A stretch of DNA of 64,000 nucleotides, taken from a virus. A program made the position numbers and the translations under genes. Shown piece after piece: positions 12,098 to 54,311 of this stretch (position 1 is the stretch's first letter; every line of letters begins with the position of its first letter). The notes under the pieces were generated by a model, which saw only the letters and a list, made by a program, of their open reading frames with translations, was not told the origin of the DNA and did not search any database. Where the stretch lies: positions 80,268 through 144,267 of the IMG/VR virus record IMGVR_UViG_3300050821_001428. One strand, given 5' to 3'.

Positions 12098-14185
12098 TTA
12101 GTAGGCGTAGGACTGGGTGGCTGGATGATATGGCTGAGTACTTCCTGTTGGGTGATCATTCAACCCCGCCCAAGCCTTACGATGTATAACGTCGGACTGA
12201 TCGCCACCGACTTGGTTCTTCTTTATATTAATAGGCGTTCTTCCTGCATTAGACTCGCGCTTGCTTTGTGATGGTCCCTGCACAATCTGAAGAATCCTGG
12301 CGGCCTGAGGTGTTAAACCAACGGTTACGTTTGTCGCATTTATCTTGTTATCCTTGCCGCCACCGCCGATACCTGATAAATATCTATCTGTCTGATTTAG
12401 ACGATCTTTCCAATTCTTGTCATTACTTAGTTCCCGAATATGTTTAGCACTAATTCCTGCTTCGCGCAAGGCGGGGATGACCTGGGCATTCCAATCTCTG
12501 TTCAATGTTTCTCGGTTAGCACCTGTTACTTGTCCATGACCGGCCTTTCTAGCCACCTGGAAGGCGTCCCACATACCAATGCCATTGGTAGACGATCCTA
12601 ATACTTCCTCGGCAGCAGCGACATGGGAGTATCGAGTATCTTCGCCAAGCATACGTTGTACTACGGACTTACTAATACCTAACATTGAGGCTATCTGTGC
12701 GGCCTCCATCTCAGAACCATTGCGGGTTCTTAAAGACGTACCATCCTTACGTGAGTACGTATCGTAATTAATGCTCTTAAGACCTTGATTTAACATTCGG
12801 ACAGCTTGTAACGTCGTGCTAGTGAATTGCCCGCCACCCATGCTGCCAAGACCAGATGGCAAAACACCCTGACCGAGAGCTAGACCTTGTACAATTGGAG
12901 ATTGTGCCAATTGAGCAGCCACATGAGGGTCCAAGCCGGTAGCTTCTGTGAAGCCCGTTACCGTACCGATTGATTGCGCTAATCCTGATCCCATGTTTGC
13001 TAATGCCTGTGCCGAATCAGCTACAGAGCTACCAAATGTATTAACAGATTCTTTCGCAGCGCGAGCCTGGACATCCATATTGGAAAGAGCATCCGCTAAC
13101 TGGGAAGCTGATGTGCCACCATTACGTAGAGCCGGGTCAAATTGACCTAATGTTTCGGCAGACAAACCTGGCATTTTAGAAATCAAAGGCCCCATAAAAT
13201 TCTTAGCTATTGTTGTCGCATCTCCACCAGGGGTAGACCATGGTGTAGGCGCGACATTAGGGGCAAATCCTTGATTCAAAATAACATCAAGCATCGACTG
13301 TGCTTGATTGCTAGTCAGACCTTGACCCGTGCCAAAGTTGACTAGATCCCTGCCGGTAAGGTAGTTCTGTAATGCCAGAGCGCCCATACCGATGCCTTGA
13401 GCCTGGCTGATATCTCGCGTAAATAGTTGATGACCTAAAATAGCATTGCCACCCGCACCAGGGCCATATCCAAATGTCTGTCCGATAGTTGCCTGGGTAC
13501 CTAGCCAATCATCAATGTGACCAACGCCTTTTCCTACCGACGATAGAATTTGAGATGCACCTTGTGCTAACCCCGGCGTTAGAGTTCTATCACCAAATTT
13601 TATACCTTGCGCGACAAGATTATTATGGGCATCGTAGACCATTTGACCATAATTATCACTAGTTTTATCCTGATTCGTATAATCAATAAATTGATTGGTA
13701 AATCCCTGCCCGAAACCTCTACTTAGATTGCCTATCATCCCCGGGCTAGTGGCGTCCGTCATGTTCTGACCAACATTAGATGCCATATTTAGATTTTGTT
13801 GGAGATTATATGAACCCAAACGCCATCTGCGGTAAAACTGTGGTCCGCCCTCACCAATCTGAGCGGCGGCGATCACCTGACCGAGATTATCTCGGTCATC
13901 ATCAATATTTTTTGCTACAGTAGCCGGATCACTTACGGCAATATTCTTCTCGTTACCCAGACTAGGTATACTCGTCGGCATACTCTGTCTAGCTTGTCTA
14001 ATCGAAGCGGCAGCATCGGCAACATTGGTCGAGAATCCATTTGTTTGTATTGCCATTTGGACAGCCGAAGCAGAATCATAAGTACCAACGTTAGGCGACA
14101 CTCTCTGTTCCGTATAGAACTGATTTAGTTGTGAAATCTGCGTTGTTAAACTCTGCAACGCATTGACTAGCTGATCATCTGGCAT
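12098..14185 (-). CDS. Tape measure protein (short)
   Basis: 695 aa, Ala/Gly/Gln-rich and helical, located downstream of tube and tail chaperones. Confidence 0.75.
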   Translation of the reverse strand: MPDDQLVNALQSLTTQISQLNQFYTEQRVSPNVGTYDSASAVQMAIQTNGFSTNVADAAASIRQARQSMPTSIPSLGNEKNIAVSDPATVAKNIDDDRDNLGQVIAAAQIGEGGPQFYRRWRLGSYNLQQNLNMASNVGQNMTDATSPGMIGNLSRGFGQGFTNQFIDYTNQDKTSDNYGQMVYDAHNNLVAQGIKFGDRTLTPGLAQGASQILSSVGKGVGHIDDWLGTQATIGQTFGYGPGAGGNAILGHQLFTRDISQAQGIGMGALALQNYLTGRDLVNFGTGQGLTSNQAQSMLDVILNQGFAPNVAPTPWSTPGGDATTIAKNFMGPLISKMPGLSAETLGQFDPALRNGGTSASQLADALSNMDVQARAAKESVNTFGSSVADSAQALANMGSGLAQSIGTVTGFTEATGLDPHVAAQLAQSPIVQGLALGQGVLPSGLGSMGGGQFTSTTLQAVRMLNQGLKSINYDTYSRKDGTSLRTRNGSEMEAAQIASMLGISKSVVQRMLGEDTRYSHVAAAEEVLGSSTNGIGMWDAFQVARKAGHGQVTGANRETLNRDWNAQVIPALREAGISAKHIRELSNDKNWKDRLNQTDRYLSGIGGGGKDNKINATNVTVGLTPQAARILQIVQGPSQSKRESNAGRTPINIKKNQVGGDQSDVIHRKAWAGLNDHPTGSTQPYHPATQSYAY

Positions 14186-14241: not shown

Positions 14242-14577
14242 ATGAGCAGATACGCTCCCCGTGATAAAGCAGTAGAACAATTATATCAAGAAATGAACCG
14301 ACCGAATCAGAGTCGAAGCGAAGACATCTTCGACTTTATCATTGCAGGCGGAATGATTCTGAGTATTATTCTGGTGCCGCCTTTTAATGTGATCTTTGGT
14401 CTGGCGCTTGTCGTTAATACCTTTCGGTGGGCATCTCAAAAGTTGAAAAGTCGAAAGGCGCGTCGTCTGGCAAGAAAGGCGCTGGTAAGAAAGGCGAGGC
14501 TAAAGGTTGAGGTTGATCAAATTCGCCAGGATCAGGCGCGGTTTGCTGTGGAACAAGAGCGTCTAAACCGTCCATAG
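14242..14577 (+). CDS. Small membrane protein (moron-like), antisense to the tail operon
   Basis: 111 aa. Hydrophobic hairpin IFDFIIAGGMILSIILVPPFNVIFGLALVV followed by a basic tail. Has its own promoter. Confidence 0.65.
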   Translation: MSRYAPRDKAVEQLYQEMNRPNQSRSEDIFDFIIAGGMILSIILVPPFNVIFGLALVVNTFRWASQKLKSRKARRLARKALVRKARLKVEVDQIRQDQARFAVEQERLNRP

Positions 14578-23787: not shown

Positions 23788-24846
23788 TTATGCCGATGGT
23801 ACTTCATAGAAACCTTGGCCAAATAATGTTTGCAAATGTCTGAAATATTTATCATATTCAGGGCCAATCGCTGCTAGCGAAAATCTTTGTATTGTTTCGG
23901 TACGAAAAATAGTCCGATGAAGAGATGTTAGCTGCTGTGCCTCAGCGACTGCGTTACAGAATGATGCAATCGAATTACAACGCCATTTTGGAGATATGTT
24001 CTCTGCAAATGCCCCCCAATTAGTTGTAATTGCTGGCGTACCCATAAACAAGGATTCAATAGTCACACCGCCAAACGGTTCGATATATAGTGTAGGGGCT
24101 AATAGGGCAATTGCTCCACCCATTAATTTCGAACGTTCCTGAGGTCCGACAACGCCATGATATTCAACCCAATTAGGTAGAGGGTAATTGCCTGACCCAG
24201 CTATATGTAGTGGTAATCCGGTACGTTCAGCTACTTCAAGAACAATTTGTAATCCCTTGCGTTCGATGAGTCTGCCTACATAAAGAAGATAATTACGATC
24301 ATTAGACATGTATTTTGATGGAAATTCGCACTTATCGAAATAGTTCGGGATTACCGTATCATAAAAACGTCCATTCAGATCATGGGCATCATTGATTTGA
24401 CTTCCATAAACCGAATGCATCCAAGCAAAAGATTCAAATACATGGTGTGTATCCGGAATAATCCCCGAATATCCAATGCCGAATTCGCAAACTATATGAT
24501 TAGGAAATGCTTCCTTAATTGGTAGCTGCGCCCGTCCACCAATAAGACAGATGATATCGTGTTGTTCGATGCGATCTTTAATCAACATGATAGATTTATC
24601 ATTAAAGCGTTTGAAAATACGGTTATCGGGATTAAATTCGGGTATAAATCCATCGAGATATTTCTCATCGGTAACGGCTAGGTATTCCGTGCATCTAGCT
24701 TCGTTTTCAACACCGGCATAAAGGTAAACTTCATGCCCTTGGTCCATCATCATGTCACAGAATTTCTTGACTTTTTGTGTATACGCGCACCATGAATATT
24801 CAGCAGTAGTGCAAGTATGAGGTAAGCTAGGGATATGAAGGCGCAT
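23788..24846 (-). CDS. Glycosyltransferase, GT-B / family 4-like
   Basis: LLYVGRLIERKG...LHIAG...PTLYIEPFGGVTIESLFMGTPAITTNWGAFAE contains the EX7E motif. Confidence 0.9.
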   Translation of the reverse strand: MRLHIPSLPHTCTTAEYSWCAYTQKVKKFCDMMMDQGHEVYLYAGVENEARCTEYLAVTDEKYLDGFIPEFNPDNRIFKRFNDKSIMLIKDRIEQHDIICLIGGRAQLPIKEAFPNHIVCEFGIGYSGIIPDTHHVFESFAWMHSVYGSQINDAHDLNGRFYDTVIPNYFDKCEFPSKYMSNDRNYLLYVGRLIERKGLQIVLEVAERTGLPLHIAGSGNYPLPNWVEYHGVVGPQERSKLMGGAIALLAPTLYIEPFGGVTIESLFMGTPAITTNWGAFAENISPKWRCNSIASFCNAVAEAQQLTSLHRTIFRTETIQRFSLAAIGPEYDKYFRHLQTLFGQGFYEVPSA

Positions 24847-34281: not shown

Positions 34282-35625
34282 GTGGAGCCATTATCATCCC
34301 AACCACCATCCTATATCACCAAGAAGATGCTACCGGGAGCGCTACCGGTAAAGAACCAGGCCGCCAAAATGGGAGTTGATCCGAGATCCGCGCAAGTTGG
34401 CCTTGCATCGGGTCGTTCGTTGCTACCGCCGTGGCCCCCCGGGTCGCCGGTGCAGAAGAATAACGTGACCTGGCAATGGGGGGACGAACTATCTGAGATA
34501 TCTCAGATAGTTACTAATATCAATCAAACCCTTGAAGAAACCGATAACATGAGTATCAGTGTTGCACAACTAAAGACATATATCAAGACGGATCTAAACG
34601 TCTTGATAGTTGGTCCCGCCGGGACAGGTAAGACCGCTATGCTTCAGGAAGCATGTGAGGGCCTTGGATTACGAATGAAATACTATCACGCAGCTACTTT
34701 GGACCCATTCGCAGACCTTATAGGAATCCCGGTGCCCGATCAGGAAACAAAGACCGTTGAGTATTATCGCCCACATGACGTGGATAACGCAGAGGTTATT
34801 TTCTGCGATGAGCTAAACCGCGCGTCTACGCAGACGACCAACGCTATCTTCGAAATGATTCAGTTCCGTTCAATTAACGGTGAGCCTCTACCTAAGCTGC
34901 GATGCGTAGTAGCTGCTATGAATCCAGTCGAGGATGCATACGATACCGACGAATTAGATATCGCTCTTCTAGACCGGTTCGATGTATATCTAAACGCCCC
35001 GGCGCAGGTTCATGCGGAATATTTTATCAAGAAGTATGGTCGGGATTACGCTAGGGTCGGTATTGAGATTTTCAATGAATATCAGGCTGATTATAATGCC
35101 CCGCAGCGTAGTAAGGATAACAAGCCAATAGGCTACTTTTCCCCACGTCGCTTGGATAAGTTAATGGATATTTTCCAGAAGTTTCCGACACCCCAGACGG
35201 TTAGTGTGGTGCTACCTCATAATGTCATCTTAAACAATAAGATGATAGCGAATAAATTCAATATTGCTCTTGGTAATCAACCCGCTCCTTCTCCTGAGAA
35301 ATCCAAGGAAGAAACCCACACAGAATTCTTGGATCAATATTACCAGAGCGATATTAGCTATAGACGTAATATCAAGCAAGCACCCAAATTGGTAGAGGCT
35401 TATAAGTGGGTAGTAGCTAAGAGAGATCAATCCATGGCTGCGAGTATCCGTGATCACCTTGCCGTCGATCTAAATCAGCAGGTTGGTGTTGATAAGATTG
35501 TTGGTAACTTTAAACTAATTATTCAGGATTTTGACGATAAACAACTGGAGATACTTATGAACAAGTGGAATTATACCAAGATGCGTAAGTTTAGTCAATC
35601 CTCTATGAATTGGTCGGGTTGGTAA
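34282..35625 (+). CDS. MoxR-like AAA+ ATPase
   Basis: Walker A GPAGTGKT, Walker B IFCDELNR, AAMNP, ALLDRF, SPRR. Alternative start at about 34549 (MSISV). Confidence 0.9.
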   Translation: MEPLSSQPPSYITKKMLPGALPVKNQAAKMGVDPRSAQVGLASGRSLLPPWPPGSPVQKNNVTWQWGDELSEISQIVTNINQTLEETDNMSISVAQLKTYIKTDLNVLIVGPAGTGKTAMLQEACEGLGLRMKYYHAATLDPFADLIGIPVPDQETKTVEYYRPHDVDNAEVIFCDELNRASTQTTNAIFEMIQFRSINGEPLPKLRCVVAAMNPVEDAYDTDELDIALLDRFDVYLNAPAQVHAEYFIKKYGRDYARVGIEIFNEYQADYNAPQRSKDNKPIGYFSPRRLDKLMDIFQKFPTPQTVSVVLPHNVILNNKMIANKFNIALGNQPAPSPEKSKEETHTEFLDQYYQSDISYRRNIKQAPKLVEAYKWVVAKRDQSMAASIRDHLAVDLNQQVGVDKIVGNFKLIIQDFDDKQLEILMNKWNYTKMRKFSQSSMNWSGW

Positions 35626-35635
35626 AGTAAAAATC

Positions 35636-36940
35636 ATGTTTGGATCCCCTGAACTTAAAAAGTACAGAGAAGCCATCAAAGAGTTACTATGGATTCACCC
35701 AGCGGTTGGATCAGTAGCACGATCAATGGGTGAACCTATTTTCACTCATGATGAACCGACGGCGTTTTTAGAGTTAGATGATAATAAAGAAATTCGCTTC
35801 AATTTTAATCCAGAATTTATTCTAGATACAGATATAGAAATAGTCTCTGCGGTGATTGCTCATGAGTCGTATCATTTGGTTCTTGATCATTTTCAGGAAT
35901 TGGTAGACAAGGTAATATTCCCCAATACCAAGACTCTAGTAATTGCTCAGGAGATTATCGTAAATGATACTATTGAAAATATCTATCATATGACTCTTCC
36001 CGACTTCGTTTATCGAGGTTTGCAAACTCTAGGCGAGGATTGTTCACAGTACACATCCAAGCAGGTATATGATAAGTTACTTGAAGATCAAGATGAGAAT
36101 CAAGATCAGAACGGCGGTCAAGGTAAGGACGAGCACGGATGCGGCGGACTTCATAATAGTGACGGAATATCAGATGAAGATGCTAAAACTGCCAAGGGTA
36201 TACAGGATGCGTTTAATGATCTCATTGATGATATTGCCAAATCAGAGGGTAAAACACCAGATGAGGTAAAAAACGATCTTCTAAATGACCACGGCGGAGG
36301 ATTTTCAATAGGTAATTTACAGGGAGATCGTGATGGTGCGCTTAGCCGCGAGCGGCTAAATTGGAAGCACCTGTTAGCCCAGATCAATCCTAAGATCATG
36401 GATTCAGGGTCACCTAAACGTCGTACGGAGAGCAATTGGATGAAGCCAAATCGTCGTATGGTTGCCATATATCCAAAGGTAATTGTACCTGTATCACAAC
36501 CAAAGGAGAAATCTTCTGACAACGATAATGGTGATATGATTCCTTCCTTCGTAATCGCCTTAGACCTATCAGGTAGTATTCCTCTGACATTAGTCGATAC
36601 GCTACAAGGGTTTCTAGAAGATATTCCAAGTGATCTGATTAATGCTTTCCCTTGCACTTGGAGTAGTCATTTAGTGCCATTTGACCCTGAGACTCGAAAA
36701 ATCTGTAGACGCGACGGAACGTCTATTAGCAGGGTATCTCGATATGTCAATGAGGTTAAATCTGAGACAGGGAGAGATCCATACGTCCTTGTAATTACGG
36801 ATGGTCAAATTTATGGAGATTTTACTAGGCCCGGAAAGCAATGGTACTGGATGGCTATCAATGCTAACTCTGTAAGTCAATGTCAGAAACATGCAGATAA
36901 ACCTGAATATGTGTATAATATTGAGGATTTCACAAATTAA
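35636..36940 (+). CDS. Metallopeptidase-like + VWA domain protein (MoxR partner)
   Basis: HESYH (HExxH) in the N-domain, acidic linker, DLSGS MIDAS and ITDG. Confidence 0.85.
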   Translation: MFGSPELKKYREAIKELLWIHPAVGSVARSMGEPIFTHDEPTAFLELDDNKEIRFNFNPEFILDTDIEIVSAVIAHESYHLVLDHFQELVDKVIFPNTKTLVIAQEIIVNDTIENIYHMTLPDFVYRGLQTLGEDCSQYTSKQVYDKLLEDQDENQDQNGGQGKDEHGCGGLHNSDGISDEDAKTAKGIQDAFNDLIDDIAKSEGKTPDEVKNDLLNDHGGGFSIGNLQGDRDGALSRERLNWKHLLAQINPKIMDSGSPKRRTESNWMKPNRRMVAIYPKVIVPVSQPKEKSSDNDNGDMIPSFVIALDLSGSIPLTLVDTLQGFLEDIPSDLINAFPCTWSSHLVPFDPETRKICRRDGTSISRVSRYVNEVKSETGRDPYVLVITDGQIYGDFTRPGKQWYWMAINANSVSQCQKHADKPEYVYNIEDFTN

Positions 36941-36956
36941 CAAGGAAAACTAATCA

Positions 36957-37133
36957 ATGATGCAAATTCTACCCAATTGGACCGTTACTTATAAGCAAAT
37001 CGATGGTGGTGAGGAACAATTAATTGTACCAAACGGCGATTTAGAAGCAATTGTACGTATCTTTAAATATAGTGGAATAAAATACTTTTTCGTTCATGAG
37101 CAGGAGCTAGATAATATTCGGTCTATTGTATGA
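36957..37133 (+). CDS. 58-aa hypothetical protein (not in ORF track)
   Basis: AAGGA RBS. MMQILPNWTVTYKQIDGGEEQLIV...RSIV*. ATGA overlap with the next gene. Confidence 0.55.
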   Translation: MMQILPNWTVTYKQIDGGEEQLIVPNGDLEAIVRIFKYSGIKYFFVHEQELDNIRSIV

Positions 37134-37441
37134 TGTATAGAAGGAAATTAAATAGTGTAAAGCGTAGAAAAAGACTAGTGACAATAGGTGAGCGTGACGG
37201 TTGGATTTGCCAACTGTGTCATGGCGAAGTAGACCGTCTAGATAGCGTAAATCATAAAAACAATGTCGGAGAGCATCGTGCTAGTCTGGATCACATCAAT
37301 CCATTATGCTTAGGTGGTAACGATGATAATAACAATGTACGTTTAGCACACCAAAGCTGTAATAATTATATAATCGGTGATAATGTGGAACCTTATCAAC
37401 CGTTTGATAAAACACCCCTATTTGGTATCGATCAAGAATGA
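37130..37441 (+). CDS. HNH endonuclease
   Basis: RDGWICQLC...SLDHINP..GG....NVRLAHQSCN. Confidence 0.85.
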   Translation: MMYRRKLNSVKRRKRLVTIGERDGWICQLCHGEVDRLDSVNHKNNVGEHRASLDHINPLCLGGNDDNNNVRLAHQSCNNYIIGDNVEPYQPFDKTPLFGIDQE

Positions 37442-37494: not shown

Positions 37495-37503
37495 TGCTAT
37501 AAT
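37495..37503 (+). promoter_or_regulatory. Extended -10 promoter, leaderless start of the HNH-Mom gene
   Basis: TGcTATAAT, 6 nt before the ATG at 37510. Confidence 0.75.
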
Positions 37504-37509
37504 GAATGA

Positions 37510-38958
37510 ATGCAGTTTTGTGCATATCATCAAATAGAGCATCTAGAAGGGGATTTCAACGCCACCCAACTCAAGCGCAAGAATAGTGCTTGGTGTCGCA
37601 AGGCTCTAGCTGAAAATAAACGCCTAAAGACCCATGGATTAGAGTCCAACTCTAAGGCCAAAGGAAAGGGCGGAAGACCCAATTGGTATACCCTTGAGGA
37701 TTTAGAGAAGATTCAAAAATGGCTTCAAGAGGGTAAATCTTATAGCTGGATCGGAAGGCAATATAACCCCGATAGACAAGCTGCGGTTATATCCAAATTG
37801 GCGCAAGAACAAGGATGGCAAAGCCAAGACGCCCTAAAACTTCAGACAAAGTTTGTTGAACCGGAAAGCAAGGTTTGCACCTGGTGTCATGAAGAAAAAC
37901 CCATTGAAAAGTTTCCTTTAAGATCAGATAGGGAAGATAATAATGGCATTTCTCGCTATGAAGCAAAATGTCATATTTGTCGTAGATTAGTAGTCCCAGA
38001 ACGACAAGCGTATAATCGTAATTATCATCAGATTAATGCAGATGCTATTCGCCAAAATAAACGCGATTATCGTAAACGTCATCCCGAGACTCATAGGAGA
38101 GCGAGTCATGTTAGGCGTGCTACTAAGAATGCCACCCGCGTAGAAGCCTACGATGAACGCCAAATATGGGAATCTTATGATGGATTATGCTATGTGTGTC
38201 AGAAGTCCGTAGATTTCAATAAGCGTGGACACGAAGGCGATTCTTTTACATTAGAACATATTGTTCCTATAAAAAAGAAAGGGCCAACTTCATATAATAA
38301 TTTAGCCGTATCACACAAACGTTGTAATTCTAGTAAGAAACGTTTGATAGTTCCTGATGTATTCGCTGAGGACAATTATTCGGTAAAAGAAATGATAGAT
38401 AAATCCGAAGCATATCGTCTATCTTTAGAAAAACATTATCTACATCGGAAACGATCATTTAGTTATGTATATGGGTTGTATAGGCATGATCAATTGATGG
38501 GATTTGTGGGATTTAGTTCGCCAACTTCGAATCGTATCTCGAAATCAGTATGCCCTGATGATACGCGCCTAGTCATTGAATTAAGTCGTTTATGGATAGA
38601 TCCTCAAGCTGCCGTTAATGCTGGATCGTGGCTAATATCTCGGGCATTAAAAATGCTCCCTCCGTATATTGTAATTTCATATGCAGATTCGGCTATCCAA
38701 GATACTAGACATACTAAACCACGCAATCATAATGGCCTGGTTTACCAGGCAACTAATTTCTATTTTGCTGGTAAAACCAAACCCTCGCATGAATACGTTG
38801 CTAATAATAGTAGATCGGTAACTAAGGATACACCTGGTGCTATCAAGCAAGAAGTATCCTCTAAATATCGCTACTGGACTTTGACCGGTAGCAAAAGAGA
38901 TAAAAAGAATCTTTTCCGATTATGTAATTGGCCTATACTGGACCCGAAAGATTCCTAA
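37510..38958 (+). CDS. HTH/Zn-finger + HNH endonuclease fused to a Mom-like (GNAT-fold) DNA-modification domain
   Basis: HNH part: CTWC/CHIC, CYVC..LEHIVP..GPTSYNNLAVSHKRCN. Mom-like part: KHYLHR..YGLY..GFVGFSSP..IELSRLW..NAGSWLISRALK..ISYAD..HNGLVYQATNF. Confidence 0.8.
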   Translation: MQFCAYHQIEHLEGDFNATQLKRKNSAWCRKALAENKRLKTHGLESNSKAKGKGGRPNWYTLEDLEKIQKWLQEGKSYSWIGRQYNPDRQAAVISKLAQEQGWQSQDALKLQTKFVEPESKVCTWCHEEKPIEKFPLRSDREDNNGISRYEAKCHICRRLVVPERQAYNRNYHQINADAIRQNKRDYRKRHPETHRRASHVRRATKNATRVEAYDERQIWESYDGLCYVCQKSVDFNKRGHEGDSFTLEHIVPIKKKGPTSYNNLAVSHKRCNSSKKRLIVPDVFAEDNYSVKEMIDKSEAYRLSLEKHYLHRKRSFSYVYGLYRHDQLMGFVGFSSPTSNRISKSVCPDDTRLVIELSRLWIDPQAAVNAGSWLISRALKMLPPYIVISYADSAIQDTRHTKPRNHNGLVYQATNFYFAGKTKPSHEYVANNSRSVTKDTPGAIKQEVSSKYRYWTLTGSKRDKKNLFRLCNWPILDPKDS

Positions 38959-38961
38959 AGA

Positions 38962-38989
38962 AAAAGGGCACCCAATTGGGTGCCCTTTT
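38962..38989. terminator. Bidirectional terminator between HNH-Mom (+) and capsid (-)
   Basis: AAAAGGGCACCC-AATT-GGGTGCCCTTTT. Confidence 0.85.
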
Positions 38990-39011: not shown

Positions 39012-40100
39012 TTATAGCTGCCACTGAACAGGAGCACCTGTGGATAGACCACCGATGTCTAGCTTGCTCGGAGCCGCTGTCGAATCACTCTTTAGAACTC
39101 TTGCGATACCACGGGGGTTCAATACAAGCATTCCGATAAGTTCATCGAGTACCCATCCCTTGTAGAACTGCTCTACAAGGTGATTCTCTTCAACGTCTAG
39201 CGAGTACATGACTGGCATAACGCCGACGAACTCTGGCTCTGCGGTTAGGAAGACCTCGCCCTGAGGAACGATGATCGAACGTTGAATCTGGAACTCACCG
39301 AACGATGTGATCTTACCACCTGCAAACACCTCATCCTTGAACTTGAAGCCTGTAACATTCAGATCCCATGTGTAAAGGTCACGAATATCAACCGGGTGTG
39401 CTAGCACGCGGCGAGCCTCAAGCTGGTTGATTTCGATCTGCGATACAGCGGAGTAGAAGTCCGATGGCTCTAGTGGGTTACCTGCGCCTAGAAGAACGGT
39501 ATGCTCATTAGGAGCAACCGATGGACCGGCTGCGATACCAGAAGCAATACCACCCGTAGGTGCTAGACCAACTGTGCTACCCGACTGCAATGTCGAGCCA
39601 AGATTCACAATCGCCTGCTCTAGAAGAAGAATTAGACGAGCGTCCTCCTGCTTCTGAATTGCCTGACGAGTTTCATCCTGAGCATACTCAACCGCATTTA
39701 CACGTAGGAAGTAAAGGTCTTCCTTACGAATACGTGGGAAGGATGCGATACGGAATAGCTGTGGGAAAGCCTGCTTGCCTTCGAATGGAGTGATCTTGAC
39801 TTCAGCGTCAGTGCTGTTAAGCACGTAAGCTTGACCAAGGTCATCCAGAATATCATAAGGCATAAGTGGGCCACGCTCTAGAGTATCTTCCACAAGGACA
39901 TTACGTACAATACCCTCATAACGAAGACGGATCTGGATAGGACCAATCATTCCCTGACCAATTCGACGTAGAGCATTCTGCTTGTCGGCTAGAATAGCTT
40001 CCAAACGTGCTGACTTCTGCGTCTTGGAAAGCTTCGGAGAACCCGATAGCTTCATTTCATAATCTGCGGAACTAACCGCTTGTCTTGTAAATTCTGACAT
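39012..40100 (-). CDS. Major capsid protein (HK97 fold, Bxz1-like)
   Basis: 362 aa. LRRIGQGMIGPIQIRLRYEGIVRNVLVED...FRIASFPRIRKEDL...KQED...FGEFQIQRSIIVP...GWVLDELIGMLVLNPRG. AAGGA RBS and downstream terminator. Confidence 0.92.
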   Translation of the reverse strand: MSEFTRQAVSSADYEMKLSGSPKLSKTQKSARLEAILADKQNALRRIGQGMIGPIQIRLRYEGIVRNVLVEDTLERGPLMPYDILDDLGQAYVLNSTDAEVKITPFEGKQAFPQLFRIASFPRIRKEDLYFLRVNAVEYAQDETRQAIQKQEDARLILLLEQAIVNLGSTLQSGSTVGLAPTGGIASGIAAGPSVAPNEHTVLLGAGNPLEPSDFYSAVSQIEINQLEARRVLAHPVDIRDLYTWDLNVTGFKFKDEVFAGGKITSFGEFQIQRSIIVPQGEVFLTAEPEFVGVMPVMYSLDVEENHLVEQFYKGWVLDELIGMLVLNPRGIARVLKSDSTAAPSKLDIGGLSTGAPVQWQL

Positions 40101-40951: not shown

Positions 40952-43900
40952 TTACCTACCGAAAATAGCGGAATCCAATACATAGTCATCCATAGGAGCA
41001 TTGCTCGCAGCCGTGTGATCATTCGCTACGCGAGTGAAACCATTAGGTGCTGAGCTAAACTTGCCGAACATAGACGGAACCTTAGTTAGACCAGCGGTGC
41101 GGTGCTGTGCAATCTTAGCCAGACCAGCAGTCTTAACCTTACTTAATGATTCAATCTGTGCTAATACTACAGTTTCATCAGTATTATCGAGAGTAGCAAT
41201 ACGATTGAACTTTGCATCAACCGGGGATAAACCTAATTCAATTTCTAGTTCTGCTAGCTTGATAGATGAGATACGCACAGAGCCGGTGTGAAGCTTCACG
41301 TCAGGCGTAGGTACTCCACCAAACTCCATCTTATCCTTGGTGGTAGGATCTTGCTGCTTCAGTACGCCATTTCCGTCAGTACCGCTCCAAGTTGTTGTCG
41401 GACCAGAGTTATTGGCGGGAGTAGTCTGATGCTCAAGTAGATTGACGCGCTTATACGAGTCAGTCGCCACCGAATCAGTGGGCTGAACTCCCTGAACCGC
41501 TGAACCTCCCTGGGCAACAGGCTTGTTACCCTGCTGTTCATTCTGTTCTAACGTGTTATCGTCGTAAGAATAACGAGCTTGTGCATATGCATCTTGTGCC
41601 TGCTTGACAGCGGCATAATAAGCATTTGCAGCCTTTACTCCATCTTCGGTTGCTGGGAACGGGTCGCTGGTCACCGGATCAGTAATACCCTTTGCGGTAC
41701 CATCCGAATCGCCAAAGGTCTTAGTTGGACCAGAATCTTCAGTTGTCTTATCGGTATTGAAACCGGAATCATCGCTCTTTGGATCAGCGGTCGTAAGGGT
41801 TTCGGTCTTATCAGGCTCGACACCCTCGACACCCGTACCACCAATACCGGTTACATCAATTTGCTTCTGTGCAGTCGAAGCTGCTTCGTTTGATGCTTCA
41901 TCGAAACCACCAACACCGACAACATCAATGCGCTCCTTAGCGGAGGTGCCGTCAGGCGGGGTAGCTCCATCAGCAATCTTGGTATTACTCATAGATTCTC
42001 CTAAATGATTATGATTGTGATTGCGTTGTGCAGTTGCCATTAGACGTTGTGCAGTCAGCATTGCTGAGGTAATAGGCGTTCTCTGATCATTCAGAATAAC
42101 CTGATTACTTGGTTGATTGGTTACAATAGTATTAGGCTGCAAAACAGGGTTTTCAACCTTGTTAATTCTTGCAGCGGTCTTTTCTGTTACTAATGGAGTC
42201 CAACTCATTCTATTATTTACATTGGCGGTGGGTTGCTGTTTATTAGGCATTTGTCCGATTGGTGCCTGAGTTTGTGGACCAGCAGCAGTTTCTTCTTGAG
42301 TCTTCATCTCGTCACGAATTTGTTGTGCCTTTTGTAGATCGGGGTTGTCAAAATCCTTAGGACTTTGGACAAACCCACACACATCACAAGTTTCACCTTC
42401 CATTTGCGCCCCACAATTATGCACTAAAGCGCCCTCTACAACATATGTATGATCTACATCAACCTCTAGATTGTAAACATATCCATCATATGGTATTTCT
42501 TGAATCGAAGAAATCTTAGAAAGATTATATCCGCCAAATGCCCATTTGTTTTTGCCATACTTGGTTGAATAATCACAATTTGGATTAACTTTATAAGCAT
42601 TTTCTACCTGATACGTTATCTTTTTATTCAATGGGTATGTGGTAGTAATTGAAGGCTTATAACAATTAATACGATTACCATACTCTGCCACTTGTAGAGC
42701 TAATGTTCTTGATGTCTGCTTAAGGTTACCCTTTTTATCATGGCCATCTCCATTTAATACTCCTTCAATAATATATTGAATTTTATTATCAGGTAAGAGC
42801 ATTAATTCAGCCGGTATGATCTTATTATGAGAATGTTTACCAATCCAAGCAGGGAACCACCTAGCCAACACAGTGCTACCTACTACTACCCATATACTAT
42901 TAGGCTTATTAGGAACGGTGTAGAGCGTAGGATGATATCCTAATTCAGTAAATATCCTTATTAGACGATCTTGATATTCTGTTTCCTTACGATGTAAAGC
43001 GAAATTAATCTCTCGTTTATTATTGCTACCCTCGGCTATATACATACCAATAGCCCATAAGAAATCTGGAGTTAATTCAAACTCGGTTGGTCCTAAAGTA
43101 CGAGATCCAGATTTAATACCGATTTTACCTCGATAAATTTGACTTGCTATATGGCGCGAAACACCCGTAAGTTCCCCGATACGTTTCCATCCCAAATGAT
43201 CTACCTCACGCAACATCTTAATTTGAGGCTTGATATCAGAATAATCTACATATTCGTTACCCCTAAATTGCTCCGGTACAGATACAGTTGTGATATCACG
43301 AACAATGCTAGGACCAACATGCACCAAATAATTCTGATTTGTTAAAGACGATGCAGACTGGAAATGTAAATGATGATTTTCTTCAAATGACTGTGATTTG
43401 TCGCAGACGCCGGGGGCGCACTTTTGATGATGATCACCTGTTTGAGCAAGAGTATAAAATGGGTGATCAGGAGTAGCAATAACAGGTTGAGTAAATAAGC
43501 CAGAATCAATTTTGATGGCATTACCCGTAAATTTATTCTCCATCACATTGAGGACGGGATGGAAATGACCATCTCCGGTTAATACCTTGGTACCCATCTT
43601 AATCATCTCAATAGGTTCATACCCATTTTCAGTGCGTACCAATGTACCGGGTGCAAAGCAAATAGGACAGATATGTTCATCTCTCAATGTGTCGATATCG
43701 TCTGGGGCATGTACCTTCATTGACTGTGGAAGCTCGTTTTCGGAAGTATGTACGTGTGACCAACGAGGGTCATTCTGAGTGACTTGATTAGGAATCGCTT
43801 CAGGACCACCATGTAGTTCCTGATCGTAGATACCACCGGGAGGGGTTGGACGTGCAGGAGATGGAGAACCAATCGGTAATCCATTTTCATCTACTTCTTC

Positions 43901-44920
43901 ATTCTGCTTCATGAAGTATGGTAGCTGAACGCCCTGTTCGTCCAAATGAGGAACACCTTGATTATACTGGCCATAACTCGGATCTTCAAACTCCTGATAT
44001 GTCCCGTCAATACCTTGTGTATGTGGGGCAAATTTGTCACGGTCGTCAGGATGTATGATCCCTGGACCATTCGGATCATATTGACCCTCAGCTACAGGAT
44101 TATAATAGTTATTATCCCATCTACCACCATCTCGACCCGAAGCAATAATTTCCTTAGTTAAAGCTGTCTCGTCTGCTGGATTAAAGACACCGGAGATTTC
44201 AAAAAATTGAACACCACCAACATTTTCATAACTCTTCTTTTTGATCTTCTGACCAGAAGCGGTCTTATAATCATGTTCATGACCCTTAAGCTTCACATGT
44301 GAGCAGAATTCAGCAGCAGTATGCGCTTTATTGCCACAATGTGAACATGTAGAGAATTCACAATTACAACCCATAGAGAAACCGTCAATATGACCTAGCT
44401 TTACTGCATTAGCAAACTTAGGATAGCTCTTGGCATCAATCTCTAGCAGTAATTCAATCTCACAAGCAGGTAGATGTGAAGAATCTACTTCTCTAGATGA
44501 CCAATATGGATCAAGGTCGGCCGTTTTAGCATCTAAGACACGGAACTTAGAATCAACAATCATACCTCTAGTCTTCTTTGGATCACCGTTATTGTGATCG
44601 ACAAAGATAGGCTTATTCATAAAGGTAGCAAAGCCATACTTCTGATTACCGTTAGAAGCTTCTAGTGTGAAACCGTCTGTCGAATGGTGCTTTGCTAGAA
44701 TGTCAGGAGATCCAGCTAACTCTACCGTAGGCCAGCCGTCATGATTCTGATTTATGCGCGAACTGATAGAACGGATTCTTACATACAGAAAATCATCGTC
44801 TGTACGGAAGTCGTTATATTCCGACATCTTATTTAGGGAAGCGGTGTAGATGCGATCCTTAGATCCCTTGAGGTCTAAAACGTCGGCAATCTCGGCTGAT
44901 GCATATTTGGTCAGGCTCAT
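40952..44920 (-). CDS. Prohead (capsid maturation) serine protease fused to scaffold, intein-containing
   Basis: NQNHDGW, IFVDHNN (His), GFSMGC (Ser), CSHC..FCSH, FFEISGVFNPAD. Low-complexity scaffold-like C-terminus. Lies upstream of the capsid genes. Confidence 0.88.
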   Translation of the reverse strand: MSLTKYASAEIADVLDLKGSKDRIYTASLNKMSEYNDFRTDDDFLYVRIRSISSRINQNHDGWPTVELAGSPDILAKHHSTDGFTLEASNGNQKYGFATFMNKPIFVDHNNGDPKKTRGMIVDSKFRVLDAKTADLDPYWSSREVDSSHLPACEIELLLEIDAKSYPKFANAVKLGHIDGFSMGCNCEFSTCSHCGNKAHTAAEFCSHVKLKGHEHDYKTASGQKIKKKSYENVGGVQFFEISGVFNPADETALTKEIIASGRDGGRWDNNYYNPVAEGQYDPNGPGIIHPDDRDKFAPHTQGIDGTYQEFEDPSYGQYNQGVPHLDEQGVQLPYFMKQNEEVDENGLPIGSPSPARPTPPGGIYDQELHGGPEAIPNQVTQNDPRWSHVHTSENELPQSMKVHAPDDIDTLRDEHICPICFAPGTLVRTENGYEPIEMIKMGTKVLTGDGHFHPVLNVMENKFTGNAIKIDSGLFTQPVIATPDHPFYTLAQTGDHHQKCAPGVCDKSQSFEENHHLHFQSASSLTNQNYLVHVGPSIVRDITTVSVPEQFRGNEYVDYSDIKPQIKMLREVDHLGWKRIGELTGVSRHIASQIYRGKIGIKSGSRTLGPTEFELTPDFLWAIGMYIAEGSNNKREINFALHRKETEYQDRLIRIFTELGYHPTLYTVPNKPNSIWVVVGSTVLARWFPAWIGKHSHNKIIPAELMLLPDNKIQYIIEGVLNGDGHDKKGNLKQTSRTLALQVAEYGNRINCYKPSITTTYPLNKKITYQVENAYKVNPNCDYSTKYGKNKWAFGGYNLSKISSIQEIPYDGYVYNLEVDVDHTYVVEGALVHNCGAQMEGETCDVCGFVQSPKDFDNPDLQKAQQIRDEMKTQEETAAGPQTQAPIGQMPNKQQPTANVNNRMSWTPLVTEKTAARINKVENPVLQPNTIVTNQPSNQVILNDQRTPITSAMLTAQRLMATAQRNHNHNHLGESMSNTKIADGATPPDGTSAKERIDVVGVGGFDEASNEAASTAQKQIDVTGIGGTGVEGVEPDKTETLTTADPKSDDSGFNTDKTTEDSGPTKTFGDSDGTAKGITDPVTSDPFPATEDGVKAANAYYAAVKQAQDAYAQARYSYDDNTLEQNEQQGNKPVAQGGSAVQGVQPTDSVATDSYKRVNLLEHQTTPANNSGPTTTWSGTDGNGVLKQQDPTTKDKMEFGGVPTPDVKLHTGSVRISSIKLAELEIELGLSPVDAKFNRIATLDNTDETVVLAQIESLSKVKTAGLAKIAQHRTAGLTKVPSMFGKFSSAPNGFTRVANDHTAASNAPMDDYVLDSAIFGR
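42416..43660 (-). mobile_element. Intein with LAGLIDADG homing endonuclease (residues 421-835, 415 aa)
   Basis: Starts CFAPGTLV. Block B ATPDHPF. LAGLIDADG blocks IGMYIAEGS and EGVLNGDG. Ends VYNLEVDVDHTYVVEGALVHN, followed by Cys(+1). Confidence 0.93.
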
Positions 44921-53726: not shown

Positions 53727-54311
53727 ATGAACTATGGAGCCGTGATCTTAGATCCTCAATATGATCTCCTTGATGGAGGTAGTATTAATGCGTTAAATGC
53801 TGGTACGGCATTACAAAATATCGTAAAGTTAACTGCTGATGCTGATCTAGTAGTAGTTACTAGGGATCTACATCCCGATAATCACTTTTCTTTTAAAGAC
53901 GAGCCTTTATTCCAAGACGGATCATGGCCCGTCCATTGTGTAGAAGGCACCAAGGGTGCTAAGGTATTTCCTGCAATTCGTAAGCGGGCCGATTATATTA
54001 TATCCAAAGGTATGAGTCCTGTACCGCCAGATGCTTATTCGGCATTCTCAGCTAAGAAACTACGCCCTTTGGAAGACCTGATTGATATACTACGTAGACA
54101 TCCGGTAGATCGTCTTATAATAGCAGGATTTCTATTAGAGATAGGTGTCAAGTACACGGCTTTTGATGCTAATGCAATCGGTCATTGGACAGAAGTCATA
54201 GTACCGCTAGAAGCATGTGGTACTCTGTTAGATGCAGCCGGGATAGCAGAGGCGATAACACCTATGCGAAAGGCCGGAATCAAAATAGTCGATCATTTTA
54301 TCAACGAATAA
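53727..54311 (+). CDS. pncA: Nicotinamidase/isochorismatase-family protein (catalytic Cys appears replaced)
   Basis: DPQYD, TRDLHP..HFSF, WPVHCV.GT.GA, SKG...YSAF. Nucleophile position reads EIGV instead of DYCV. Confidence 0.8.
   Translation: MNYGAVILDPQYDLLDGGSINALNAGTALQNIVKLTADADLVVVTRDLHPDNHFSFKDEPLFQDGSWPVHCVEGTKGAKVFPAIRKRADYIISKGMSPVPPDAYSAFSAKKLRPLEDLIDILRRHPVDRLIIAGFLLEIGVKYTAFDANAIGHWTEVIVPLEACGTLLDAAGIAEAITPMRKAGIKIVDHFINE

Follow-up and report, generated by a model that had tools for sequence, protein, structure and literature searches.

Directly behind the major capsid protein (MCP) gene of a 144-kb uncultured phage lies a gene that joins an HNH nuclease to a Mom-family domain in one protein (Table 1; the window is the whole 64,000-nt stretch of phage DNA that was analysed). 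Judged from its sequence and that of its relatives, the fusion gene is an optional, self-contained unit. Its HNH and Mom domains both look active, with catalytic residues kept at only 30-49% identity. The unit behaves like a selfish or mobile element, being optional in close relatives and always placed at the capsid 3' flank. We consider it a candidate cut-and-protect gene of the capsid 3' flank: a mobile nuclease of the homing type, protected by the adenine modification that its Mom domain would supply. We hold this explanation with about even confidence.

Table 1. The HNH-Mom gene, its modules and its surroundings, with positions in the window.
Feature	Position	Strand	Basis
Separate small HNH gene, 103 aa, same variable slot, just upstream	37130..37441	+	HNH/HNH_5, several PHROG HNH families
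Extended -10 box TGcTATAAT	37495..37503	+	Direct reading; layout kept in homologues
HNH-Mom fusion ORF, 482 aa	37510..38958	+	ORF reading, Pfam, PHROGs, AF2 model
Helix-turn-helix module, aa 61-111	37690..37842	+	AF2 helices, weak HTH_38, homologue HTH matches
Four-Cys zinc ribbon, C123/C126/C154/C157	37867..37980	+	Invariant Cys, PHROG overlap
HNH nuclease core, aa 222-280 (CxxC, catalytic His250, N264, H269, N273)	38173..38349	+	Pfam, alignment, 4h9d
Mom-family GNAT domain, aa 283-482	38356..38955	+	Pfam, phmmer, Foldseek, VIA, alignment
GC-rich hairpin between A-run and T-run	38963..38988	.	Folding; conserved after capsid stop
Major capsid protein gene, convergent neighbour, probable insertion-site anchor	39012..40100	-	PHROGs, capsid comparison

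The protein is read from a single open frame with zero internal stops, and its AF2 model has a mean pLDDT of 88.7. Two ORFs or a frameshift were ruled out, the frame being open from end to end and the fusion being kept in eight homologues. The preliminary description had seen a helix-turn-helix (HTH), a zinc finger, an intact HNH and a Mom-like domain in one ORF, and Pfam, PHROGs, the model and the alignments bear this out. The HTH region has a weak Pfam match only (HTH_38, E 0.056); in the model, aa 62-101 form a unit of three helices with good confidence (helices 62-73, 78-83 and 91-101, pLDDT around 90), and the N-terminal parts of homologues P0008, P0015, P0016 and P0018 give significant HTH matches (HTH_23/HTH_7). 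All four zinc-ribbon cysteines are invariant in the alignment of eight fused homologues, and the ribbon falls inside PHROG endonuclease VII / Lar-like matches. Further along, PHROG endonuclease VII/HNH families span aa 106-278, and Pfam HNH (PF01844) matches at aa 227-277 with 35.5 bits against a cut-off of 21.4. The HNH residues C227, C230, H250, N264, H269 and N273 are invariant across the eight fused homologues (30-49% identity). The beta-beta-alpha-Me motif and zinc ligands are intact, and the core aligns to the HNH endonuclease 4h9d. A Pfam search found no methyltransferase domain in the protein; the modifier is a Mom-type GNAT.

On the Mom-family identity of the C-terminal domain, proposed earlier from the letters alone, Pfam, Foldseek, VIA and the active-site residues all agree. 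The Pfam Mom model (PF25680) matches aa 295-434 with 80.5 bits against a cut-off of 27.1, covered only at its positions 6-142 of 202, and the Mom-like phrog_1384 matches aa 287-470 (1.7e-28). Compared with Mu Mom (8bv8), the domain gives a phmmer E of 1.3e-5; the same structure is the best Foldseek match for the modelled domain (E 4.4e-11), and in the VIA comparison it reaches Z 18.3 with an rmsd of 3.0 over 179 residues, the next GNAT scoring Z 11.7. Across 14 aligned sequences, among them Mu Mom and further Mom-family proteins, the equivalents of Mu H58, Y59, R111, S124, D149 and Y159 are invariant. Six of the seven residues placed in the Mu Mom active site by Silva et al. are thus kept here, and these active-site residues are important for Mu Mom activity (Silva et al. 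2026, PMC13219725). The same paper gives the Mom chemistry as Gly-tRNA(Gly)-dependent formation of N6-carbamoylmethyl-dA; adenine remains the modified base, as first described, and the acetamido-modification named then is to be corrected. Mom chemistry was solved only in 2026.

Some features of Mu Mom are not reproduced. In the 14-sequence alignment HNH-Mom has no Arg at D149+2, the place of R151, which is essential in Mu. Most of the aligned family members are also without R151 and show a His, nearly invariant, at Mu position 154, so R151 appears to be Mu-specific rather than family-defining. The region of the HTH-like insertion (Mu 175-209), which is needed for Mu Mom activity, is about 10 residues shorter here and is modelled as a loop plus a beta-hairpin. 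Stand-alone Mom relatives also have the short form; among them P0020, of the same subfamily and 49% identical, shares the short C-terminal region. A complex prediction for a Mom-domain homodimer scored 0.02 and was counted neither for nor against. The phage genome holds a single Mom gene.

The gene has the extended -10 leaderless promoter of its own that the preliminary description had reported. The -10 box ends 6 nt ahead of the ATG, a Shine-Dalgarno sequence is absent, and the same -10-then-ATG layout stands upstream of homologues in L001, L003, L013 and L109, with TTGACA-17-TATAAT in L013. A consensus promoter and terminator scanner listed neither the box nor the hairpin, both of which were seen by direct reading or folding; the box was missed because its -35 is poor. 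The hairpin (-22.1 kcal/mol, z -5.2) had been taken for the unit's own terminator, a claim that did not survive comparison. An equivalent hairpin stands after the capsid stop codon in 18 of 18 relatives with a readable capsid 3' end, whether the HNH gene is present or absent. Since the hairpin follows the capsid gene even without the HNH gene, it is the capsid gene's terminator, shared bidirectionally. The gene had also been described as antisense to the MCP gene; the two are convergent without any overlap, with stop codons 53 nt apart.

The position next to the capsid gene is constant. In the window this gene (phrog_2522 major head protein, 7e-94) encodes a capsid 54% identical to those of Mycobacterium cluster C myophages, the best capsid match in the phage collection, which yielded no close isolate relatives. 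All 10 informative contexts place the HNH-Mom gene immediately 3' of a major capsid gene; seven of them (L004, L107-L110, L112, L113) came from a protein search that made no use of the capsid gene. The arrangement is convergent in the window, L004, L013, L024-type contexts and L113, and co-directional in L107, L108, L109, L110 and L112. Capsid identity to the window's capsid in these contexts falls from 87% down to 50%, and L112 and L113 have another capsid family, phrog_14242. That the insertion site is fixed speaks for an element of the homing type rather than a restriction-modification-like one. The constant position also marks the capsid 3' junction, occupied in both orientations and beside two capsid families, as a likely hot spot of phage-versus-phage conflict.

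Presence at this location is patchy. Searching for the architecture and comparing presence and absence among relatives, as had been suggested at the outset, returned fused homologues and a slot with varied contents: in close relatives it holds HNH-Mom, an HNH with a second probable GNAT (phrog_24928), an HNH alone (L075) or no HNH gene. The presence label needs at least 3-5 changes within the 19-row capsid clade. DNA similarity between carriers and non-carriers ends at the capsid terminator and returns at the next conserved gene, and HNH-Mom proteins are 40-49% identical where the capsids are 80-87% identical. The HNH-only homologue of L075, on a 5.4-kb contig, has DNA in common with the 5' end of the HNH-Mom gene. 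Genes with no relation to HNH-Mom are also numerous in the slot, NAMPT and a methyltransferase among them. Counting against homing, a permissive site behind a strong terminator explains part of the slot pattern, and old vertical inheritance with repeated loss could also have produced it.

Traces of exchange were sought at the end of the capsid gene. In L028, L029 and L084, synonymous differences stand at 0-30% until the last ~45 capsid codons and jump to 59-72% there, and the protein is 97-100% identical. By this measure the capsid tip is an apparent exchange boundary in these near relatives, a pattern that general mosaic recombination around a variable slot may have produced, instead of conversion driven by a nuclease. 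The spike is clearest between relatives that currently have no HNH gene. In the window's own capsid gene an exchange tract is unreadable, as all available relatives differ strongly from it at synonymous positions from one end to the other; the closest, whose capsid genes are about 76-78% identical to it in DNA, are too diverged to reveal a cleavage site, a target or a conversion tract.

Mom has been joined repeatedly to homing-endonuclease modules, namely HNH, EndoVII, GIY-YIG, T5orf172, NUMOD and DUF2726. The EndoVII-Mom fusions have a fixed site of their own, always between the cement and prohead genes (L001, L002, L111). On the other side of the pairing, the alternative C-terminal domain of P0003/P0004 is a probable GNAT, on the basis of an ESM Atlas lead and phrog_24928; its profile comparison with Mom gave a probability of 1.2%, which is not significant, and its model (pLDDT 45) comes from a 2-sequence alignment only. 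The pairing has outlasted exchanges of the nuclease type and of the GNAT type, which argues for functional coupling. No HNH partner was found in the neighbourhoods of the stand-alone Mom-like genes (L086-L104). One of those loci has a weak PD-(D/E)xK match and a C5-methylase.

How might such a gene work? In the homing explanation that we favour, the N-terminal HTH and zinc ribbon would steer the HNH, which would cut a capsid-flank site in co-infecting relatives that are without the gene. Recombinational repair would then copy the gene into the cut genome, in the way that the T4 Seg/Mob enzymes carry out intron-less homing. The Mom domain, acting as Mu Mom does, would transfer glycine from Gly-tRNA(Gly) to adenine N6 in duplex phage DNA, giving N6-carbamoylmethyl-dA, and this modification would protect the carrier's DNA against its own nuclease, against host restriction or against the two together. 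With the two fused, the cutter would never be produced without the protector. Against a homing element with an active Mom stand the want of a clear equivalent of R151 and the shorter HTH-like insertion, as aligned and modelled. A narrower proposal, which we regard as rather unlikely, is a homing endonuclease whose self-immunity is chemical and not sequence-based. Here the HTH and zinc ribbon would steer HNH and Mom to the same capsid-flank site, and the target adenine would be N6-carbamoylmethylated, so that the constrained capsid sequence need not mutate. If true, this would amount to a gene drive of phage against phage in which homing and the logic of restriction-modification are combined, and it would explain why Mom-type GNATs recur on HNH, EndoVII, GIY-YIG and T5orf172 nucleases.

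The preliminary description had offered two readings, a selfish restriction-modification-like element and a homing nuclease with an anti-restriction function. The architecture behind them stands, and comparison supports both as far as sequence goes. Under the former, a non-homing single-chain weapon would use Mom to mark its own adenines genome-wide and HNH to degrade unmodified host or superinfecting DNA, the position being an expression or permissive slot. We think this has a smaller, though still appreciable, chance of being right. Both catalytic centres are conserved, the genome has only one Mom gene, the nuclease and GNAT pairing survives swaps of either partner, and the same model is put forward in the Mom account of Iyer et al. 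2021 for jumbo-phage REase-Mom fusions. However, a weapon of this kind leaves the family-specific fixed sites, the divergent capsid families and the use of both orientations unexplained, and the HNH-only homologue of L075 would be self-harmful if it cut all unmodified DNA. For L075, a protector could lie elsewhere, beyond the contig.

The homing part might be right and the Mom part wrong. Homing endonucleases are modular and take up many unrelated DNA-binding domains, and a Mom-like domain that no longer modifies DNA could serve a homing-type HNH as a DNA-binding or dimerisation module, or could acylate tRNA or protein. The partial coverage of the Pfam Mom model and the absence of the Mu-specific R151 and of the full-length HTH-like insertion are in keeping with this idea. 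We nevertheless consider it improbable: invariance of nearly the whole Mu Mom active site is unexpected for a purely structural role, the phrog_1384 match spans most of the domain, and the short C-terminal region is also found in stand-alone Mom-like proteins such as P0020. Even further from what we would expect, and very improbable, is an HNH protein that works in packaging or with the capsid, comparable to the one that stimulates terminase in HK97-type cos phages, and that has an incidental anti-restriction domain. HNH proteins that assist terminases are known, and the gene does sit within the structural module and adjoins the capsid gene. Yet it is missing from most close relatives with the same capsid, portal and prohead genes, no terminase gene is adjacent, and it has its own promoter and is transcribed against the late operon. 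Being optional among relatives, the gene is no essential morphogenesis factor, and a terminase-accessory role was ruled out.

Nuclease-Mom fusions have been predicted, and we know of no experimental test on record. As a compact system contained in one protein, HNH-Mom lets two questions be asked: can a DNA hypermodification other than methylation be a nuclease's 'self' mark, and can homing endonucleases make their target sites immune by modification? Should the enzyme prove site-specific, it may also yield new reagents for nicking or cutting DNA that are sensitive to adenine modification.

Among known systems, Mu Mom (PF25680; PDB 8bv8) is the closest to the C-terminal 200 aa, which score above the Pfam threshold, have it as their best structural match and keep six of its active-site residues. 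The two differ in that identity is about 27%, Mu Mom stands alone whereas this domain is fused to a nuclease, and HNH-Mom has a leaderless promoter in place of Com-type translational control; HNH-Mom also has no R151, has an 11-residue insertion after D149 and has the shorter HTH-like insertion. The combination of a nuclease with a Mom domain in one polypeptide is shared with the jumbo-phage REase-Mom proteins, for which the Mom account of Iyer, Anantharaman, Krishnan, Burroughs and Aravind (2021, PMC7824862) predicts that modification protects self DNA and the nuclease attacks other DNA. HNH-Mom is not new in principle, given that prediction; it is a variation on the predicted nuclease-Mom theme, and may be mentioned in other Iyer et al. 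papers. The nuclease of the earlier fusions has a restriction-endonuclease fold and their carriers are jumbo phages; HNH-Mom, from a phage of 144 kb, instead pairs Mom with an HNH nuclease of the beta-beta-alpha-Me type that is accompanied by a zinc ribbon and an HTH. The Mom account in PMC7824862 is silent on a fixed capsid-flank location, patchy presence and GNAT swapping.

Single-chain Type IIC/IIG restriction-modification enzymes (MmeI-type) likewise place cutter and modifier in one chain, where they could share a DNA-recognition module. The modifier of HNH-Mom is a tRNA-dependent GNAT and not a SAM methyltransferase, its nuclease is an HNH, and the gene is phage-borne and site-anchored; shared specificity is hypothetical here. 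The free-standing phage homing endonucleases (Seg, Mob, I-HmuI-type HNH; PMC2988022, PMC10448857) resemble it in being free-standing, with their own promoter, between conserved genes, sporadic in relatives, and at a family-specific fixed site; a position on a genetic-exchange boundary may be a further parallel. Homing by HNH-Mom is a proposal. The known enzymes carry DNA-binding modules only, whereas HNH-Mom adds a DNA-modifying enzyme domain to the nuclease.

A single uninterrupted ORF beside the major capsid gene encodes a 482-aa protein that joins, as the preliminary description had it, an HTH, a zinc finger, an intact HNH nuclease and a Mom-like domain. In Pfam, aa 227-277 score 35.5 bits for HNH (cut-off 21.4) and aa 295-434 score 80.5 bits for Mom (PF25680; cut-off 27.1); PHROGs assigns endonuclease VII/HNH families to aa 106-278 and 'Mom-like DNA modification protein' to aa 287-470 (1.7e-28). 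From the N-terminus, an AlphaFold2 model based on 58 homologues (mean pLDDT 88.7) shows a small Cys/His part, three helices forming an HTH (aa 62-101), a zinc ribbon of beta structure (aa 120-150), a stretch of long helices (aa 155-206), the beta-beta-alpha core of the HNH (aa 245-276) and, at aa 283-482, a GNAT domain. Across an alignment of eight fused homologues (30-49% identical), zinc-ribbon C123, C126, C154 and C157, HNH residues C227, C230, D235, H250, N264, H269 and N273, and many Mom residues are invariant.

Aligning the Mom domain of the fusion with further family members and with Mu Mom (L106, from NC_000929) gave invariant columns at H58, Y59, R62, R111, S124, S128, D149, G156, Y159, A161 and F164 (Mu numbering). 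The active-site residues named for Mu Mom are H58, Y59, R111, S124, D149, R151 and Y159, with R111, S124 and R151 reported essential (Silva et al. 2026, PMC13219725). Of these seven, R151 alone has no counterpart in the fusion protein; most family members also lack it and show an almost invariant His at Mu position 154. Mu Mom requires an HTH-like insertion (residues 175-209), which the subfamily of the fusion, stand-alone members included, has in a form roughly ten residues shorter. Among PDB structures the model is closest to Mu Mom 8bv8 (Foldseek E 4.4e-11); VIA aligns 179 residues at Z 18.3, while the next-best GNAT reaches 11.7. Given the conserved residues and this structural match, the C-terminal domain is classed as a Mom-family member and is probably active.

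The window takes up the rightmost 64 kb of an IMG/VR virus record that is 144,267 bp long (~90% complete). It has ~44% GC and a myovirus-type structural region, with a major capsid protein that shares 54% identity with the capsids of Mycobacterium cluster C myophages. The prohead protease/scaffold-type gene carries an intein, as judged from Hint/Intein_splicing matches in homologues at related loci (L001, L109, L110) and from tblastn, which splits the gene around the insert. A plus-strand accessory block lies in the tail-to-capsid interval and includes the MoxR-type AAA ATPase and the DUF2201_N metallopeptidase-like protein. Directly upstream of the fusion gene is a separate HNH gene, whose start overlaps the stop of a small ORF; the variable slot thus has two adjacent nuclease genes.

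Coordinates of features in the window and at related viral contig loci (L-handles)
Locus	Position	Strand	Feature
Window	12098-14185 / 14242-14577	- / +	ORFs from loose -10 scan
Window	23788-24846	-	ORF from loose -10 scan
Window	34282-36940	+	MoxR-type AAA ATPase (447 aa), then DUF2201_N metallopeptidase-like protein (434 aa)
Window	36957-37133	+	58-aa ORF
Window	37130-37441	+	103-aa HNH gene
Window	37495-37503		TGcTATAAT
Window	37510..38958	+	HNH-Mom fusion gene
Window	38963-38988		Hairpin
Window	40952-44920	-	Prohead protease/scaffold-type gene, 1322 aa
Window	53727-54311	+	ORF from loose -10 scan
L001	8657-10147	+	EndoVII-Mom; 3' end overlaps prohead gene end
L111	2245-3768	+	EndoVII-Mom; 3' end overlaps prohead gene end
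L109	3443-4228	+	Free-standing HNH gene, 261 aa
L112	1947-3400	+	Two NUMOD/HNH homing-endonuclease-like genes
L103	985-2248		Two Mom-like matches, 340 nt apart
L081	9136-10524	-	NAMPT/NAPRTase gene
L047	9160-9825	-	Class I methyltransferase

Viral contigs were scanned with the capsid protein (80 loci, 49-90% identity), window genes were mapped onto them, and ORFs were called in the slot that follows the capsid gene. This slot is hypervariable. HNH-Mom fills it in the window and in L004, L013 and L024/25/26/73. In L001/L002 and L003 (= L036) that N-terminus and HNH are joined to another C-terminal domain (phrog_24928, which an ESM Atlas lead hints may be GNAT-like), L075 has a homologue with HNH only, L047 and L081 are examples with unrelated genes, and L032/33/48, L034 and L084 have almost nothing there. 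On a quick capsid tree all HNH genes fall within a single 19-row clade, where they are scattered, with at least 3-5 gains or losses. Between carriers and non-carriers, DNA similarity ends at the capsid terminator and returns at the next conserved gene.

Protein-based searches, independent of the capsid gene, recovered the same architecture elsewhere: among 1.84 billion representative proteins, some twelve clusters at 50% identity cover the two domains. In all ten readable contexts, window clade included, HNH-Mom directly adjoins the 3' end of a major capsid gene. The two genes are co-directional in L107, L108, L109 and L110 (capsids of L107-L109 50-59% identical to the window's; those of L107 and L110 in its family, phrog_2522). 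A different HNH variant with a Mu-like Mom subfamily accompanies phrog_14242 capsids, co-directionally in L112 and convergently in L113. L112 also has two homing-endonuclease-like genes just upstream of its capsid gene.

Synonymous differences along the capsid gene mark a boundary at this flank. Three near-identical relatives (L028, L029, L084) show 0-30% through the gene body and 59-72% in the last ~45 codons, with the protein still 97-100% identical. This pattern indicates a recombination boundary within the capsid tip that travels with the variable slot. None of the three currently has the HNH gene, and among the window's own relatives divergence is too high for a tract to show; the comparison supports the tip as a hot spot of exchange and does not prove nuclease-driven conversion.

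The gene's proposed own extended -10 leaderless promoter held up: 6 nt separate the hexamer from the ATG, and direct reading found no Shine-Dalgarno sequence upstream. A leaderless transcript is supported by retention of this layout at homologues in L001 (TGcTATAGT, then 6 nt), L003 (TGcTATCAT, 6 nt), L013 (TTGACA-17-TATAAT, 7 nt) and L109 (TATAAT, 6 nt). A loose scan found -10-like boxes 5-8 nt before the start codon in 13/52 window ORFs, a few of them strongly TATAAT-like, and Shine-Dalgarno sequences are present at few ORFs; a host with frequent leaderless translation is suggested. The proposed terminator is a strong hairpin (-22.1 kcal/mol, z -5.2), but it is not the gene's own. An equivalent follows the capsid stop codon in 18/18 relatives with a readable capsid 3' end, HNH gene present or absent, which makes it the terminator of the capsid gene, shared bidirectionally.

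A second family fuses two endonuclease VII domains to Mom (proteins P0005, P0021) and is always antisense, between cement and prohead genes (L001/L002, L111). Near the equivalent site, just before the cement gene, L109 has a free-standing HNH gene. Other Mom partners are GIY-YIG with a Mor-like HTH (P0054), T5orf172 (P0074), NUMOD (P0012) and CapR/DUF4379/DUF2726 (P0010, P0055, P0134); most of these are nuclease or DNA-binding modules of the kind usually seen in homing endonucleases of phages. Among sampled loci, no stand-alone Mom-like gene had an HNH neighbour. The Mom-like matches in L103, with no single ORF across both, may represent either two tandem genes or one interrupted Mom gene.

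A family-specific fixed site used in both orientations, patchy presence, an own promoter and homing-type modules together point to HNH-Mom as a homing-type mobile nuclease gene. Domain swapping runs both ways, HNH and EndoVII each occurring on closely related Mom domains, and one N-terminal HNH scaffold bearing either Mom or another probable GNAT; this argues that nuclease and GNAT are functionally coupled rather than chance neighbours. The most economical coupling is 'cut and protect', with adenine modification of the Mom type as what would guard the carrier genome against its own nuclease, host restriction, or both. We give the combination of homing-type mobility with 'cut and protect' about an even chance. 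The first proposal of a selfish element is partly supported by sequence comparison, the gene being optional among close relatives and fixed in site, with homing ranked above a restriction-modification-like weapon. Such a non-homing weapon, the model of Iyer et al. 2021 (PMC7824862) for REase-Mom fusions, seems unlikely. An exapted Mom domain that modifies no DNA is less probable again, and a packaging role very improbable.

Nuclease-Mom fusions have already been proposed in print as one-protein restriction-modification-like systems, for REase-fold fusions of jumbo phages (PMC7824862); neither Mom mechanism paper mentions fusions. No description of HNH-Mom, its capsid-flank anchoring, the EndoVII-Mom site or GNAT swapping was found in the searchable literature, with two Iyer papers outside the search. 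Within that literature these features appear new, and the concept behind HNH-Mom is already known, as predicted for REase-Mom.
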